Shown here piece after piece: positions 2,536-33,335 of a DNA stretch of 39,157 bases. The stretch covers positions 1 through 39,157 of the forward strand of contig JAAYRF010000006.1 in NCBI GenBank assembly GCA_012518905.1. Reading direction: 5' to 3'. Each line of letters begins with the position of its first letter. Position 1 is the stretch's first letter. Origin of the DNA: Bacillota bacterium (GTDB taxonomy: Bacteria; Bacillota; Limnochordia; DTU087). The translations under genes and the position numbers were made by a program. The notes under the pieces were generated by a model. It saw only the letters and a list, made by a program, of their open reading frames with translations. It was not told the DNA's origin and ran no database searches.

Positions 2536-3060
2536 CTAAATAATGCTATCTTCGTCGGTGGCTAGGAGGCCTCGATGGGCTAGGGCCTGACGAGCTTCTT
2601 CCAGGTCTTCTAACCTTGCATACTCAACGGAATGCAAATGTACGCCATCAGTTAACGATGAGAGTAGGGTTGCTTCCTCCTTTGCTAGTGCTTCTATGAA
2701 ACGTTTCACGTCTTGTCTAGACCTCATCATTAAGCATCCCCGCAGTTCGCCGTAGAGAGGATGCTCTACGATGACATCCAGCACCTTGAGACCATGATCT
2801 ACCATGATGTTGAGTTCATCTTCGGTATCCTGCGCCTGGTGTTTGACAGCTAGGACGGCTTGATTGGCGGCTTCTCCTTGGGGAAGAAGATACCCTTGAG
2901 GAGTAGCCATTATGTCATACCCCTTGGCCCTTAGAATGGCTACATCCTGCACGATAACCTGGCGGCTGACACCTAGATCCTTCGCTAGATCAGAACCGCT
3001 CATTGGCGTGGAGGTTGTTGACAGCTTCTGAAGAATGTTTTCCCGGCGTTTCCCGCTCAT
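2536..3060 (-). CDS. niaR: Transcription repressor NiaR/NadR (HTH plus 3H domain)
   Basis: The 174-aa protein shows HTH and 3H-domain features (MSGSDLAKDLGVSRQVIVQDVAILRAKGYDI...HPLYGEL...). It is the last gene of the nadC-nadA operon. Confidence 0.85.
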   Translation of the reverse strand: MSGKRRENILQKLSTTSTPMSGSDLAKDLGVSRQVIVQDVAILRAKGYDIMATPQGYLLPQGEAANQAVLAVKHQAQDTEDELNIMVDHGLKVLDVIVEHPLYGELRGCLMMRSRQDVKRFIEALAKEEATLLSSLTDGVHLHSVEYARLEDLEEARQALAHRGLLATDEDSII

Positions 3061-3072
3061 AAAGTCATCACC

Positions 3073-4167
3073 CTAAGAGCCTATTTTGAGCATTCGCTCG
3101 ATGGCTACCCGTGCCCACTGGGCAATCTCGTTATCAACAGTGATTTGATTTCTGATCTCGCCAGCAAGCAAACCTTCCAAGCACCATAAAAGGGTGACAG
3201 GAGTGGTTTTCATCATATCGGAGCATGGCTCTACCCGCTCGTCCAGTGACCGAATATTCTTCTCTGAATGCTCTTTGCCCAATCGCCTAACTAGATTGAT
3301 CTCCGTACCGATTGCCCAAGAAGAGCCAGGGGAGGCGGCTCGTATACGTCCAATGATACCTTCCGTAGAGCCACTATCGTCAGCTTCTTTGGCGGTGTCA
3401 TGGGGACATTCCGGGTGCACTATGATTTGGATACCAGGGTGTTCTTGCCTAAGCTTGTAGATTTGGTTGGGGTTGAATTTTGCATGTATTGGGCAATAGC
3501 CATTCCACAAAATGAGCTCCGGATCGGAAGAGCCCAACAGCTCTTGTCGGTGGCGATCCCAAACAGACATAGCCTCAAGGGAAATGCCCACCAGCCTGCC
3601 GGTGTTGCGGCCCAAGTGTTCGTCAGGTAGAAAGAGTATTCTCTTACCTTGGGCTAAGGCCCAGCGAAAGATTCTCACAGCACTAGACGAAGTGCAGGTT
3701 AACCCGCCGTGTTTACCACAGAAGGCTTTGACTTCAGCAGAAGAATTGACATACGTGATGGGGATAAACTCCTGGTTGAAGCGGCTTTGTATTACTTCCC
3801 AACACTCTCGGACTTGCTGGGCGTTGGCCATATCTGCCATCATGCAACCTGCTCCGGGCTCTGGCAAGATAACAGTCTGCTGGGCGGAGGTGATTATGTC
3901 TGCCGTTTCGGCCATGAATCTTACTCCAAGGAAGACGATGTAGTGGGCTATCTTGTTTTCCGCAGCGTGTCGGGCAAGGAGGAAAGAATCACCCCTGAGA
4001 TCGGCGAATTCGATGACACTGTCGTGTTGGTAATGATGACCAAGAATGAGTAGTTTTGCACCCAGCTGTTTGCGAATAGTTTGTATACGGGCACGCAGAA
4101 CCTCTGGCCGCAATCTGGGACTGGACGATATGCTTGAAGAGCCATGGGCTACTGTATCACGAGCCAT
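3073..4167 (-). CDS. nadA: Quinolinate synthase NadA
   Basis: Bacillus-type NadA motifs are present (ILGHHYQ, FMAETADI, HPECP). I moved the start to the ATG at 4167 because AAGGAGA (4174-4180) sits just upstream and the longer ORF would overlap nadC. Confidence 0.9.
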   Translation of the reverse strand: MARDTVAHGSSSISSSPRLRPEVLRARIQTIRKQLGAKLLILGHHYQHDSVIEFADLRGDSFLLARHAAENKIAHYIVFLGVRFMAETADIITSAQQTVILPEPGAGCMMADMANAQQVRECWEVIQSRFNQEFIPITYVNSSAEVKAFCGKHGGLTCTSSSAVRIFRWALAQGKRILFLPDEHLGRNTGRLVGISLEAMSVWDRHRQELLGSSDPELILWNGYCPIHAKFNPNQIYKLRQEHPGIQIIVHPECPHDTAKEADDSGSTEGIIGRIRAASPGSSWAIGTEINLVRRLGKEHSEKNIRSLDERVEPCSDMMKTTPVTLLWCLEGLLAGEIRNQITVDNEIAQWARVAIERMLKIGS

Positions 4168-4181
4168 ATTCATTCTCCTTA

Positions 4182-5009
4182 TCAATGGGCTTGTAGTTCC
4201 AGGCTGATATCCAAAGGAAGGGCGGAATGGGTAACCCAACCGAGGGATATGACATCAACGCCGGTGGCGGCTACCAGGGAAACTTGTTTGGGAGTTATGC
4301 CGCCTGAGGCTTCGACAATGGCTCTCCCCTTGATTATGTCTACAGCCTCGCTCATTGTGCCTGGATCCATATTATCTAACATAATAACATCAGCCTCCGC
4401 GGCCACTGCCTCCCTGACCTGTGCAAGATTTTCTACTTCCACTTCTACTCTCACCATGTGACCTACACGCTCTTGGGCCAGCTTAACGGCTTTTTCCACG
4501 CTACCGGCTATTTCAATGTGATTATCCTTGATGAGGACTCCGTCATCTAGACCAAAGCGGTGGTTTTTACCGCCCCCCACACGCACAGCATATTTTTCCA
4601 ATGCGCGGAGTCCTGGAGTGGTCTTTCTGGTATCGGTGATGGTGGCATTAAAGGGTTTTGCCGCCTCAACTGCTTCTTGTGTAGCCGTAGCGATGCCAGA
4701 GAGTCTTTGTAGCAGGTTGAGAGCTACCCGCTCACCCGCAAGTATGCTGCGGGCGTTGCCGGTTACTGTGGCTATCACATCCCCCTTATGGACTCTGTCC
4801 CCATCTTGTTTTAGTGGGGTGAAAACTATGTTTGGATCGACTAGGCACAGAACTTGCTGAGCCATGGGCAAACCAGCTAATACTCCCGTGGACTTGCTGA
4901 TGAAACTTGCTTTTCCCACAGAATCCCGGGGAACAATGGCATCGCTTGTTACATCACCTCTGCCCAAGTCCTCCTCCAGTGCCTGGCGCAAGATCTTCTT
5001 TATTAGCAT
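4182..5009 (-). CDS. nadC: Nicotinate-nucleotide diphosphorylase (carboxylating), NadC
   Basis: The protein shows the QPRTase signature (LEEDLGRGDVTS...TRKTTPGLR...DNHI). I chose the ATG at 5009, 5 nt after AGAGGTG. The GTG at 5015 in the ORF track lies inside that RBS. Confidence 0.9.
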   Translation of the reverse strand: MLIKKILRQALEEDLGRGDVTSDAIVPRDSVGKASFISKSTGVLAGLPMAQQVLCLVDPNIVFTPLKQDGDRVHKGDVIATVTGNARSILAGERVALNLLQRLSGIATATQEAVEAAKPFNATITDTRKTTPGLRALEKYAVRVGGGKNHRFGLDDGVLIKDNHIEIAGSVEKAVKLAQERVGHMVRVEVEVENLAQVREAVAAEADVIMLDNMDPGTMSEAVDIIKGRAIVEASGGITPKQVSLVAATGVDVISLGWVTHSALPLDISLELQAH

Positions 5010-5165
5010 TGCCACACCTCTTTTGTGATAGAGCGGGTATGCATCACCTCTGAAAGATAAGTGAACCTAGCTGCATCTCCGCCGATGATATGCAGGGCCA
5101 TTCACCCTCTTGAGACTCGCCTCATTTTGGCGTGCCCTTGCCTGGACCAACATCCTGTCCACTTC

Positions 5166-5194
5166 ATTATCTGTCTATACAGCTGTCTTGTCAA
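5166..5194 (-). promoter_or_regulatory. Candidate sigma-A promoter of nadC-nadA-niaR, with AGACA direct repeats in the spacer
   Basis: On the - strand the sequence reads TTGACA-17 nt-GATAAT. The spacer, AGACAGCTGTATAGACA, carries two AGACA copies and a central ACAGCTGT palindrome. Confidence 0.45.
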
Positions 5195-5267: not shown

Positions 5268-5342
5268 GCGGATGTGGCCTAGTGGTATGGCATCGGCTTC
5301 CCAAGCCGAGGATCGCGGGTTCGAATCCCGTCATCCGCTCCA
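5268..5342 (+). tRNA. tRNA-Gly (anticodon CCC)
   Basis: The cloverleaf was folded by hand. The acceptor stem pairs GCGGATG with CATCCGC, the anticodon stem pairs TCGGC with GCCGA around the loop TTCCCAA, the T-loop is GGTTCGAATCC, and CCA is encoded. Confidence 0.9.
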
Positions 5343-5349
5343 TTTTTAT

Positions 5350-5425
5350 GCCGGCGTAGCTCAATCGGCAGAGCGACGCATTCGTAATGCGTAGGTTAGC
5401 GGTTCAATTCCGCTCGCCGGCTCCA
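5350..5425 (+). tRNA. tRNA-Thr (anticodon CGU)
   Basis: The acceptor stem pairs GCCGGCG with CGCCGGC, the anticodon loop is TTCGTAA, the T-loop is GGTTCAATTCC, and CCA is encoded. Confidence 0.9.
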
Positions 5426-5476
5426 AGGGACTCCGTAACCAGGTGCTGGTGCGGAGTTTGTCAATTTGTGGGAAAC

Positions 5477-5518
5477 AAGGAGAGCCCTTCGGAGGTGAAT
5501 TCCGAAGGGCTCTCCTTG
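5477..5518. terminator. Bidirectional terminator hairpin between convergent tRNA genes
   Basis: An 18-bp perfect stem pairs CAAGGAGAGCCCTTCGGA with TCCGAAGGGCTCTCCTTG across a 6-nt loop. Confidence 0.65.
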
Positions 5519-5522
5519 TTGA

Positions 5523-5599
5523 TGGTGGTCGCATCTGGACTCGAACCAGAGGCCTCTACGATGTGAGCGTAGCGCTCTAACCGACTGAGCTATGCGACC
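5523..5599 (-). tRNA. tRNA-Val (anticodon CAC)
   Basis: The reverse complement folds as GGTCGCA...anticodon stem CTACG/CGTAG with loop CTCACAT...GGTTCGAGTCC...TGCGACC-A-CCA. Confidence 0.9.
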
Positions 5600-9492: not shown

Positions 9493-9568
9493 GCGCCTAT
9501 AGCTCAGCGGAATAGAGCACCGGCCTCCGGAGCCGGGAGCGCAGGTTCGAGTCCTGCTAGGCGCACCA
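9493..9568 (+). tRNA. tRNA-Arg (anticodon CCG)
   Basis: The acceptor stem pairs GCGCCTA with TAGGCGC, the anticodon stem pairs CCGGC with GCCGG around the loop CTCCGGA, the T-loop is GGTTCGAGTCC, and CCA is encoded. Confidence 0.9.
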
Positions 9569-21006: not shown

Positions 21007-21096
21007 GCACCGATATTAGTGCAGGAGTTCTATCGTTAGGGTAGAATATGTGCCATAGCCGCTTGGAAGCTGGCTATTAGACAATTGCATACAACA

Positions 21097-21262
21097 GCCC
21101 TTAGGTGCCCTCACTTGGGGGAGAATAGGGAAGCTGGGCGAGTGCATGCAGCTCGTAACCACGCGGTCGCGCCACTGTGCTGGGGAGTAGTCATCATTCA
21201 CCGACGATTTGAGGGAAGGATGCGGCAATCATGATGAACCAGCAGCCAGGAGACCTGCCTAG
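21097..21262 (+). promoter_or_regulatory. Cobalamin (B12) riboswitch aptamer
   Basis: The conserved blocks appear in order: AGGTGCC, AATAGGGAAG, GCCACTGT and the B12 box AGCCAGGAGACCTGCC (21244-21259). It lies upstream of btuF-like transporter genes. Confidence 0.8.
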
Positions 21263-21354
21263 GGGCAACGACTATGACCTTCGCGAAAAAGGGGATGGTA
21301 CGCATGAGCCATAACAGGCCTATGTTCTAGGTTGGTCCTGTCGGCTACCTCAGT

Positions 21355-21385
21355 CCTCTAACCTAAGTGGGGAGAGGATTTTTTG
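21355..21385 (+). terminator. Riboswitch expression-platform terminator
   Basis: The stem pairs TCCTCT(AACC) with (GG)GGAGAGGA and is followed by TTTTTT, immediately before the btuF-like RBS. Confidence 0.55.
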
Positions 21386-30770: not shown

Positions 30771-31406
30771 TTGGCGTGGAAGAGGATCTCCGATGCAGTG
30801 ATCCGGCGTCTACCTCTATATCTCCGGGTACTTGAGGAAGTCAAGAGCAAACAGTCGTCCATCTCCTCCCAGGAGCTAGGAAGCAAAGCTGGTGTTACAC
30901 CGGCCTTGGTGCGTAAGGATTTGGCTTGGTTTGGAGAGTTCGGAAAACAAGGGGTAGGCTATGATGTAGAGTTTCTCCAGGATGAGCTACGGAAGATCCT
31001 TCACCTCGATGCGCCTATTCATATGGCGCTAGTGGGTGTAGGTAGTTTAGGACGTGCTTTAACTCGCTATAACCGTCGCCGCTTCCGGGATGACCCGATT
31101 TTTACCATCAACTTGGTGGCTCTCTTTGACGCGGACCCTAAGGTGGTTGGCACAACATTTGATGGTGTATCAATTCACCACATAACGGACATTTCTCGAG
31201 TTGTTGCGAAGATGGATATTCAAATGGCAATCGTGACTGTCCCCGCAGATGCCGCCCAAGAAGTGGGGAATCTGCTGGCTGAGGCAGGTGTGAAGGCGAT
31301 TCTCAACTTTGCTCCGGTCAGCATAGACCTTCCCAGCGATGTGCATGTTGCCAACGCCGATTTGAGTCTGGAATTACAGCGCCTAGCGTATTACATCCAT
31401 GGGTAA
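30771..31406 (+). CDS. rex: Redox-sensing transcriptional repressor Rex
   Basis: The sequence runs RRLPLYLRVLEE...SSQELG...LVGVGSLGRAL and then a Rossmann fold. The start is TTG, 8 nt after AGGGAGGG. Confidence 0.9.
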   Translation: MAWKRISDAVIRRLPLYLRVLEEVKSKQSSISSQELGSKAGVTPALVRKDLAWFGEFGKQGVGYDVEFLQDELRKILHLDAPIHMALVGVGSLGRALTRYNRRRFRDDPIFTINLVALFDADPKVVGTTFDGVSIHHITDISRVVAKMDIQMAIVTVPADAAQEVGNLLAEAGVKAILNFAPVSIDLPSDVHVANADLSLELQRLAYYIHG

Positions 31407-31515
31407 TGATCGCGTTAACTGGGAGAAACTGGAGAGACCATCTTTGGCCAGGACGTATATTGCAGTAGGAACTCGGGCACCATCATAAATGCAACCCACA
31501 GTATGTCAGTTGGGT

Positions 31516-31905
31516 TGGGTAAAGGGGTCCATAGCGGTCGAGCGCAGATCTATGCAGGTTCTGTAGGGGATCTGCATAGGTCGAGCAAAGGCCAAAACCG
31601 GTTCCAAATCGGGGATCGGTTTTCGCCGGCGCCAAGGTTATTGCATGTCTCATAGGGGTTGGTAACGGCTGTAGAAGCTGTTACTGGCTCTGCAGGGATG
31701 TGCAGTAGCCGGGCCAAGATCACCCCGAGTTGCCCAAGGATCTATGGTGGCCATCAGGTCACTATAGGTTCAGAATGTGACTCGTGGTGGTCGGGCGAAG
31801 ATCAGCGTATTTTCCGTAAGGTTCTATAGCAGCCGAAAGGTTGCTGTGGGATCTGTAGGGAGGTACGTTGGTCGGAGCGAAGATCGTTATGGGCTCCTTT
31901 ATCGA
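31516..31905 (+). repeat. Degenerate non-coding tandem array of ~9 units of ~41-43 nt, forming serial hairpins (candidate structured RNA)
   Basis: The anchor motif GGTCGRGCG(A/C)AGATC and its variants occur at 31536, 31579, 31624, 31707, 31789 and 31870. Weaker units lie between them. Stops occur in all frames. Unit spacings are 39-46 nt and are mostly not multiples of 3. Confidence 0.6.
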
Positions 31906-31906
31906 T

Positions 31907-31942
31907 CCTCCGGCGGTGGAAGGCGGATGCCACCGCCAGAGG
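31907..31942 (-). terminator. GC-rich hairpin immediately after the MCP stop codon
   Basis: On the - strand a 13-bp stem pairs CCTCTGGCGGTGG with CCACCGCCGGAGG, including one U-G pair. On the + strand that position is a C-A mismatch. There is no clear U-tract. Confidence 0.5.
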
Positions 31943-31955
31943 AAAAGAGGCCGGT

Positions 31956-33068
31956 TTAAACTCGGAACTCCTGCACCTGATCTTTTATGCGTTCTGCCAT
32001 ACTGGTCAAAGTCTGAGCTCTCTGTGATATCTGCTCTATGGAGGCAGCTTGTTCTTCGGCTACGGCTGCAATCTGCTGACTTCCGCTGCTTAGATGCTGG
32101 ATATTGGAGCTGAGATTCTGCATTTCTCTAACCGACCTATCGACTTCTTTCTTAACGGCGCTAAAGCTTTCTGACAGCTGCCTAAGAATGTTTCTACCAC
32201 CTTCTACTGCACGGACATTCATATCCACAGCAGCATCAGCCTGGGAGTCACCCTCAGATATGTTGGCAACTACCCGCTGTACTTCATTGGCTGCTCGCCC
32301 CGATTGCTCCGCAAGCTGTCTAACTTCCTCAGCTACCACGGCAAATCCCCGACCTTGCTCACCGGCTCGCGCTGCTTCGATGGCGGCATTGAGTGCTAGC
32401 ATGTTGGTTTGGTCGGCAATATCAGTTATGTCACCGACAAACCGATCGATTTGCTCGTAGCGTTGTCCCAAATCTTTCCTTATTTCGGCTAGCTCGGAAA
32501 TGGCCTGTTCTATCTGAGCCATTTGATTTACTACCTCTTGGATCAACGCTAAGTGGTCTTCGGTGATTTCACCCACCTTTAGAGAGGATTCTGCCAACAC
32601 CCCGGAAGTAGCGTTAACCTGCTGGACCGAACTGGCAAATTGGTTAGCAGTACTGGCCACCTCTTGAACAGATGCATTAATTTCTTCTGAAGAGGTCAGT
32701 AGGTTCTCACTAGCCTCAAGTAGCTCTTGGGAGATCCCTTGCACACTTCCGAAGAAGGTCTTCAGTTTGTCTCCTAGGCTGACTAGAGATTGGCCTAGGG
32801 AGCCAAGACGTCGATCCTCGTTGGCAGCCAGCTTATCTGCGGAGCTTAAGTCGCCCTTTGCCAGCTGCTTTGTAACTTCTTCTATATCTTCGAATCTTTG
32901 CTTTCCCATGAAGACTCCAAAGCCGGCCAGAAGGAAGTTGACTGCCAATATGCCTACGACCCATGCCATCTCCTGCAATGACTCAGCTATTTTCAGAAAA
33001 CGAATGATTGCCGTGGAAATCCCGATAAATACAACACCTACGATGAGCTTTCTCCAATTCACCTTCAT
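31956..33068 (-). CDS. Methyl-accepting chemotaxis protein (2 TM, HAMP, MCP signalling domain)
   Basis: The highly conserved hairpin region reads [40 protein letters not shown]. The RBS is GGGGAGGAA. Confidence 0.9.
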
Positions 33069-33335
33069 GAACTAGATTCCTCCCCGCTCGTTTCCGGATA
33101 AAGATATTCTTGGTAGATACTAGTACTAGATTCTGCATGGACACAATCTTTCCTACATACAATAGGAAAAATCCTCCAACCTTAAGGGAAATGGCAGGCA
33201 CTGGTATAGGCCCATAGATCGGGAAGGATCCTTTTATCTTGGTGTGGAAATACTGTTGGCAGGTGCTAAATAAGCCCATGGATATTGGGGTGTCGACGGG
33301 AGACGGATATAGCTTTTATAGAAAGGGAGCTGCCC

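Follow-up and report, generated by a model that had tools for sequence, protein, structure and literature searches.

A conserved structured noncoding RNA encoded directly downstream of rex in an uncultured Bacillota lineage

The 39,157-nt stretch of Bacillota bacterium DNA analyzed here (contig JAAYRF010000006.1; this whole stretch is referred to below as the window) contains a 549-nt spacer between rex (30771–31406, + strand) and a convergent gene encoding a methyl-accepting chemotaxis protein (MCP) domain (31956–33068, – strand). This spacer is almost certainly the gene for a conserved and previously uncatalogued structured RNA on the + strand, and we take the RNA to be real because the region shows covariation, lacks an open frame and has no match in Rfam. 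The RNA extends over ~450 nt (window ~31491–31943, +), with a core of ~390 nt when its first hairpin and the terminator-like hairpin at its end are left out, and its predicted fold begins with a hairpin at the 5' end (P0), continues with a 22-bp helix (P1) that closes a six-way junction with five arms (A–E) that are mostly 15–16-bp helices, and ends in a GC-rich hairpin. Comparison of related sequences shows this predicted six-way-junction fold to be under purifying selection, and the RNA is a new family of large structured noncoding RNA that lies outside every Rfam family.

The spacer has no evident coding capacity. A preliminary description, made from the sequence of the window before any comparison, had reported that it contains no credible open reading frame (ORF), and this holds among the relatives, where the longest stop-free stretches differ from one another and the variable columns of the RNA alignment are distributed over the three codon positions as 65, 70 and 66 of ~127 each, without three-base periodicity. 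No reading frame that stays open across species was found in this alignment. Public annotations of two related loci (these loci are designated by L numbers) place hypothetical ORFs of 84 aa (L013, 3823–4077, +) and 51 aa (L009, 4054–4209, +) on or beside the RNA; both are probably spurious, as neither gives a Pfam hit or is conserved among the other lineages.

We folded the segment from 31480 to 31950 as RNA, each strand separately, and compared the results with shuffled sequences. The + strand has a minimum free energy (MFE) of -271.7 kcal/mol against -161.3 ± 6.0 in shuffles (z = -18.4), and the – strand reaches -148.9 kcal/mol against -120.6 ± 5.5 (z = -5.1); with DNA parameters the + strand gives -90 kcal/mol against -61.6 ± 4.2 (z = -6.8). 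The gap in stability between the strands is due to G-U pairs, which account for 39 of the 176 predicted pairs in the + strand fold, and the assignment of the RNA to this strand, which had been proposed from G-U pairs in a few stems, is therefore correct. An inverted repeat search returned a 27-nt long-range pair (31513–31539 with 31882–31908). The spacer had been described as a chain of consecutive, separate hairpins; hairpins are indeed present, but they are longer than described (15–16 bp), several of those listed are fragments of arms C, D and E, and all of the arms are enclosed by the 22-bp helix formed by 31518–31539 and 31882–31903, which had been missed.

Covariation was evaluated in nine distinct full-length sequences, several of which are closely related. 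In these nine, 97.6% of pair cells form standard pairs, and double compensatory changes occur at 42 of 159 pairs, compared to 13.9 ± 2.9 in column shuffles (none of 500 shuffles reaches 42) and to only 5–10 pairs in a control in which the partners were slid by 1–3 columns. RNAalifold, run with seven sequences, predicts 160 pairs, of which 44 have both sides changed with pairing kept. Pairs with compensatory changes are present in P1 and in every arm, and we note that helix lengths are fixed, because alignment gaps are confined to terminal loops, one linker and one bulge. The earlier proposal of a structured noncoding + strand RNA is thus borne out both by thermodynamics (the z-score of -18.4) and by covariation at 42 of 159 pairs.

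A search of the window against Rfam 15 gave no match to the spacer at the gathering threshold, and a permissive search of 31300–32100 gave no relevant match at E ≤ 10; OLE, ROOL, GOLLD, raiA, HEARO, 6S, group I and II introns, RNase P and transfer-messenger RNA all fail to reach the threshold in the spacer, and the most divergent copy, L015, has no family match either. Elsewhere in the window the only Rfam matches are tRNAs and a cobalamin riboswitch. Permissive matches to H19 and to plant microRNA precursors were dismissed as chance; those in L015 (3816–3895 and 3981–4058, +, corresponding to arms C and E) score 16–17 bits against thresholds of >100 for the plant microRNA models, and occur because arms C and E share a long-hairpin shape, and only that, with these precursors. 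Our literature search found no described RNA downstream of rex or in Limnochordia.

All parts of the RNA gene lie on the + strand. P0 (31491–31518, folded as 31492–31517) is a 5'-terminal hairpin at the predicted transcript start with the stem CAACCCA/UGGGUUG, and is paired in 90% of cells with A-U/G-C covariation at two pairs. The two strands of P1 (31518–31539 and 31882–31903) are supported by the inverted repeat, the fold and covariation; the helix has 19 consensus pairs, 96.5% paired, with three double changes and invariant G-U and U-G pairs. P1 is followed by the junction linker J1 (GAGCGCA; 31540–31546), the first copy of a recurring GRGC-NAA linker, whose CGC may pair with the GCG of J6 (85% paired, without covariation). 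Arm A (31547–31582) is a 16-bp hairpin made of a single helix with a GAUC/GGUC base and a GGUUC/GGAUC top; its 15 consensus pairs are 99.3% paired and include four double changes, and its loop varies in sequence and length. Linker J2 (GAGCAAA) and arm B together occupy 31583–31627, arm B (31590–31627) being a hairpin of 3 + 12 bp with a GGUUCC/GGGAUC top and 15 pairs, 97.8% paired, with seven double changes.

Linker J3 (GGCGCCAA) and arm C follow at 31628–31710, with arm C itself (31636–31710) having a 3x3 internal loop between its two stacked 16-bp helices; the helices have 16 pairs each, are 99.3% and 97.2% paired, and contain seven and four double changes respectively. Arm D (31718–31792; 31711–31792 including linker J4, GGGCCAA) has a lower helix of 7 + 8 bp and an upper helix of 15 bp with a conserved asymmetric internal loop between them, and is the best-conserved part of the molecule, with 17 and 16 pairs in its helices, of which 11 and 7 are invariant. 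Linker J5 (GGGCGAA) and arm E lie at 31793–31873; arm E (31800–31873) has two 16-bp helices, 100% and 98.6% paired with seven and three double changes, flanking a GUA/GUA 3x3 internal loop, and ends in a conserved GNRA tetraloop that is GAAA in the window and GAAA, GGAA or GCAA across all sequences. The final linker, J6 (GGAGCGAA; 31874–31881), contains the sole unpaired GGA of the RNA core (probability of being unpaired 0.96–1.0), and its GGAGC is kept in eight of the nine sequences.

The six anchor motifs from which a repeat had originally been recognized were all placed correctly, and correspond to the arm-joining linkers of the form GRGC-NAA. A search with GGTCGRGCNNAGATC, allowing up to two mismatches, finds four matches in the window, all within 31536–31803 (+), with 1.5 expected by chance. 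The repeat is not an ordinary tandem array, however, as had been supposed: Tandem Repeats Finder (TRF) detects no array scoring ≥30, and a repeat search yields only short two-copy matches. The approximately nine units of 41–43 nt that had been counted are half-units, and the real periodicity is of four double units of ~82–88 nt (A+B, C, D and E), each comprising a linker plus ~80 nt of helix, with a mean column identity of 68% when aligned. At one end or the other, most of the helices carry GAUC opposite GGUC or GGUU, and because of this there are nine GATC sites in ~360 nt of the RNA region, compared to ~1 per 180 nt window-wide. The window as a whole has 216 GATC sites, and 168 ± 12 are found in dinucleotide-preserving shuffles, none of which reaches 216.

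Rex of the same species is present on 23 metagenome contigs, the spacers of which are 99.8–100% identical and differ by two single nucleotide polymorphisms, both upstream of the RNA. Rex homologues point to an uncultured Bacillota lineage, the nearest named relatives being Limnochordia (Geochorda, Limnochordaceae) at ~60–63% identity. When the neighborhoods of Rex proteins are taken at decreasing identity, relatives with 72–79% Rex identity (L007/L008, L009, L011, L013, L015 and L016) have the RNA directly 3' of rex on the same strand, with a constant distance of 370–373 nt between conserved anchors. A full RNA immediately 3' of rex is present in eight further species-level relatives, whether or not they have the MCP gene. 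The RNA is absent after rex in all of the loci tested with Rex identity of ≤66% (L017, L018 [Geochorda subterranea] and L019).

Within the clade the MCP-domain gene is an insertion/deletion polymorphism: only the window, L011 and L013 have it, and in L007, L009, L015 and L016 it is missing and fhs (+) is the next gene after the RNA. The RNA therefore goes with rex and not with MCP. The MCP gene had been offered as weak motility context for the RNA, a suggestion that loses its basis because, of the eight related loci with the RNA, four do not have the gene. Downstream genes at the RNA loci are either MCP (opposite strand) or fhs/ndk, and no transposase or phage genes were seen near the locus.

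A pattern scan using the most conserved stretch of arm D over 185,579 species-representative genomes returned six true matches and two chance matches. The true ones are all metagenome-assembled genomes named "Bacillota bacterium", from biogas reactors or similar, and each has a single RNA copy with rex immediately upstream. In a metagenome collection, a transition-tolerant version of the pattern gave one true match (L032, a partial copy that was left out of the alignments) and 10 chance matches. A scan of viral contigs gave one chance match only, in high-GC coding DNA, and BLAST searches of plasmids and phages found no similarity to the RNA. The RNA-bearing clade is a small, uncultured group of Bacillota known from anaerobic digesters, and probably belongs to the class Limnochordia.

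Alignment of the region upstream of P0 reveals two conserved boxes with an unconserved, variable spacer between them. The first, a putative -35 box (31455–31459, +), is GTATA in the window and GTATA, GCATA or GAATA in all eight aligned lineages, with variable flanks; the second, a putative -10 box (31475–31484, +), is 14–15 nt downstream (15 nt in the window), has the form GGnnAT..TA, and reads GGGCACCATC in the window. The consensus for SigF is GYATA at -35 and GGnnAnAHTR at -10 with a 14-bp spacer, with GAATA a known -35 variant (PMC11599450), and the csfB promoter is GTATA / GGGGAGGCTA (PMC4383634). A relaxed pattern, G[CTA]ATA-N14-15-GGnnAnnHT, has three matches in the window on both strands (1.35 in shuffles), one of them at 31455–31483; the other two, one before nadC (at 5180, –) and one before an unknown ORF, look like chance. 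The pattern is at the homologous place in seven of eight relatives, 58–68 nt before the P1 anchor, and is the only match in the loci (4.4–8 kb) of six of those seven. The conserved boxes also fit the related SigG consensus about equally well. Reading a GTATAYT box as a sigma-A -10 element was considered and dropped, since the second conserved box 14–15 nt downstream fits a two-box forespore promoter better.

Since 6–7 nt separate the end of the -10 box from the start of P0, the predicted RNA would have this hairpin at its very 5' end. At the other end, a GC-rich terminator-like hairpin (31906–31943, +; an inverted repeat of 14 nt, 93% complementary) lies immediately beyond P1; a GC-rich hairpin is present after P1 in most lineages (L007, L009, L011, L013 and L021), and that of L021 is a canonical terminator on the + strand, ending in a T7 tail. 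The absence of a terminator after rex, noted earlier, is confirmed by a simple scan of the window, which finds none between rex and the element. A forespore promoter is biologically plausible in this lineage, because one study (bioRxiv 10.1101/2022.02.25.481979) treats Limnochorda pilosa as a spore-former that has the core sporulation genes, and the window itself encodes a SpoIID-domain protein. On balance we favor, with some reserve, the view that the RNA has its own forespore-type (SigF/SigG) promoter.

The distribution of conserved features suggests how the RNA might act. Conservation falls on the helix lengths and linkers, on the internal loops in arms D and E, on the GNRA loop that ends arm E and on the copies of the helix-end motif, and not on the other four terminal loops, which differ in both sequence and length. 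The helix-end element, GAUC/GGUY, recurs at least eight times with invariant G-U/U-G wobbles, always abutting a GRGC-NAA linker or a loop, and P1 has the same wobble pattern. From this pattern it seems that what is recognized is a shaped double-stranded site present in many copies. We propose that the RNA may be a rigid multivalent platform acting in trans, because the helix-end motif recurs, the helix lengths are fixed and the loops are variable. It would be transcribed from the SigF/SigG-type promoter, starting at the first base of the 5' hairpin and ending at the GC-rich hairpin after P1, and with a promoter of this type would be made during sporulation, in the forespore. The platform could then dock or sequester several copies of a helix-recognizing, probably dimeric, protein, or alternatively the RNA could pack into a defined RNA architecture; action by base-pairing or by display of single-stranded GGA would be improbable. 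The logic would be akin to that of a sponge or a 6S-type decoy, but with double-stranded sites, and to our knowledge no mechanism based on a rigid, double-stranded multivalent scaffold is currently described for bacterial RNAs.

We give an even chance to the whole package of an independent RNA gene of ~450 nt with a forespore promoter and multivalent-platform action in trans, and the specific scaffold mechanism stands well below that. More tentatively still, the RNA may represent a new ornate class that is made in the forespore in a Limnochordia-like clade and uses its iterated 16-bp helices as a rigid multivalent scaffold; it would then be either a protein sponge with double-stranded sites or an RNA-only assembly, with a role in the development or dormancy of the spore. 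It is a genuine possibility that the RNA acts in a new way.

Several observations weigh against these proposals. The transcript, its ends and its timing are inferred from sequence. The window's -10 box departs from the 10-mer consensus at two positions, no copy has the A expected at position 7, and L009 fits the promoter pattern poorly; for these reasons, and because SigG fits about equally well, we use only the label "forespore-type". A sigma-70 promoter scan of the + strand found nothing convincing, and the terminator-like hairpin of the window has no U tract. Pairing of the invariant helix-end motifs is unprovable by covariation save for one double change in L021. The analysis yielded no partner protein, and in the loci examined there is no gene whose occurrence follows that of the RNA. 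L014 (Rex 75% identity) has no RNA after rex, the RNA having been either lost or located elsewhere in that genome; its locus (3646–3958) has the same upstream synteny (fucose isomerase, glyS and rex), followed only by a terminator and an ABC transporter. Finally, the narrow distribution could mean a dispensable, lineage-specific function.

Other explanations of the RNA can be weighed on the same evidence. It could be the 3' untranslated region (UTR) of the rex mRNA, or be cut from it, and serve in cis as an exonuclease block or processing element that determines how stable the rex mRNA is, with no promoter of its own, as would suit its invariable position directly 3' of rex on the same strand and the lack, in the window and in L007, of a recognizable terminator separating rex from the RNA. 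We consider this unlikely, since ~390 nt of covarying, fixed-length architecture far exceeds what a 3' stabilizer needs, terminator-like hairpins separate rex from the RNA in L016 and L011, a conserved promoter-like element of two boxes is found after rex and before P0, and L014 retains rex without the RNA. An "ornate", self-sufficient RNA that forms a self-assembling RNA-only particle or a ribozyme, like ROOL, GOLLD or OLE, and titrates no protein, is a further candidate that we regard as rather unlikely. Its strictly fixed helix lengths, conserved linkers, arm E GNRA tetraloop, 3x3 internal loops and invariant wobbles are what recommend it, and the RNA-only assemblies of large bacterial RNAs described within PMC12286853 provide a precedent; however, free variation in four of the five terminal loops makes loop-loop contacts unlikely, few unpaired nucleotides are conserved that could form an active site, and there is no similarity to the ROOL, GOLLD or OLE families. 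Arms C, D and E could also be precursors that RNase III cuts into small RNAs. They are near-perfect hairpins of 75–85 nt whose helices are broken every 16 bp by conserved internal loops and whose weak Rfam matches are to plant microRNA precursor models, but bacterial RNase III prefers roughly two helical turns, which is longer than these helices. Because covariation keeps pairing and not arm-interior sequence, so that there is no conserved "mature" sequence besides the helix ends, and because neither the closing helix nor the conserved junction would be needed, a precursor role is distinctly improbable.

The interpretation put forward in the preliminary description was a CsrB/RsmZ-like sponge that titrates CsrA through GGA motifs in hairpin loops. 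There are several G-rich RGGAU motifs in a repeated hairpin organization, and one conserved unpaired GGAGC in linker J6, but of the seven GGA triplets in the core six have a predicted probability of being unpaired of ~0, the exception being the GGAGC at 31874. The motifs that had been read as GGGA/AGGA loops lie paired in the conserved GGAUC/GGUUC helix ends. Pairs just beyond this duplex covary (e.g. 131–141 and 132–140 in arm B), L021 has a C-G to U-A double change inside it in arm D, and one-sided changes in L009 and L024 retain pairing. The hairpin at 31686–31710, singled out for its 9/10 match to the CsrA consensus from systematic evolution of ligands by exponential enrichment (SELEX), competes with the conserved arm C and is paired in 70.8% of cells in the nine species against 70.0% in shuffles. 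No Rfam match to the Csr/Rsm covariance models was found in 31300–32100 even at E ≤ 10, and tblastn with Bacillus subtilis CsrA found no csrA in the window or in the relatives' loci examined. With the GGA motifs paired, the key hairpin unconserved, no Csr/Rsm match and an unconserved MCP context, a CsrA sponge is very improbable. It is scarcely credible that the element is non-functional, whether as a lineage-specific minisatellite, the decayed repeat of a mobile element or a cluster of GATC sites at the level of the DNA: although the units are internally repetitive, GATC sites are dense (nine in ~360 nt) and the distribution is narrow, there is no variation in copy number or length between species (the distance between anchors being constant at 370–373 nt), TRF is negative, the locus is fixed and single-copy without transposase or phage genes nearby, and 42 pairs have compensatory changes alongside strand-specific G-U pairs. 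Also rejected were an fhs leader or riboswitch (the opposite-strand MCP gene intervenes in three lineages), a decoy for the Rex operator (nothing in the sequence resembles a Rex box), a CRISPR array, a group II intron and, for arm D, a k-turn or a canonical 11-nt tetraloop receptor (neither agrees with the sequences).

Bacterial noncoding RNAs longer than 350 nt with strong covariation are rare, and earlier ones have proved to be ribozymes, ribonucleoprotein cores and, recently, RNA-only nanostructures. Like OLE, ROOL, GOLLD and raiA, the rex-linked RNA is a large, multi-helix, covarying Bacillota RNA with no coding capacity and with a conserved GNRA loop and junctions. Unlike them it is smaller (a core of ~390 nt), does not match their Rfam models, is assembled from repeated 16-bp helices of nearly equal length that share a recurring helix-end motif, and is present in a handful of uncultured species instead of hundreds. 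It resembles the forespore small RNAs CsfG and Bvs196/S357 (Bacillus, 294 nt) in being an intergenic RNA gene, here with a putative SigF/SigG-type promoter and a terminator-like hairpin, and Bvs196 has conserved stems and variable loops (PMC9147052), as here. The rex-linked RNA is larger than Bvs196 and far more stable (-272 versus a reported -82 kcal/mol), and its forespore expression is predicted from the promoter sequence. As in CsrB, RsmY and RsmZ, one RNA may present many copies of a single binding element, but this element is double-stranded (GAUC/GGUY ends), the molecule is closed by a long-range helix, and no Csr/Rsm model matches. As in 6S RNA, the molecule is highly paired, and helical shape, and not target pairing, is the likely functional feature; 6S-1 affects sporulation timing (PMC9147052). 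However, 6S RNA is a single ~190-nt rod whose central bubble mimics an open promoter, and there is neither such a bubble nor a 6S Rfam match here. The repeats of type III toxin-antitoxin RNAs (ToxI-like) are likewise at the RNA level with a period of ~36–45 nt that is not a multiple of three. ToxI-type repeats are near-identical, direct, immediately upstream of the toxin gene and cut into units, whereas the units here are degenerate (TRF negative), share one global fold, and are not followed by a toxin gene of the ToxN/AbiQ type.

The unusually regular modular design, extreme stability and plausible forespore promoter make this RNA a tractable new object for RNA structural biology, and it may have a part in sporulation beyond the Bacilli and Clostridia. 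Its general importance is limited by its distribution, which comprises six GTDB species representatives, the window's species and further metagenome contigs.

Other features of the window include a conserved block, GGAWCCTTTTnnCTYKKTGTGGAAATACTGTT, located ~30–60 nt upstream of fhs (formate-tetrahydrofolate ligase) at 33226–33265 (+) and in L007, L009, L015 and L016. In these four loci it lies between the RNA terminator and fhs, and it is kept with or without an MCP gene between. The block could be an fhs promoter or operator, and is unlike the canonical Rex box. Further to the left in the window, a cobalamin riboswitch (21086–21276, +; Rfam RF00174, 61.6 bits) lies upstream of ORFs starting at 21383, and a nadC-nadA-niaR-like operon (2536–5015, –), encoding QRPTase, NadA and a protein with HTH_11 and 3H domains, adjoins a cluster of tRNA genes (5268–5599 and 9493–9565).

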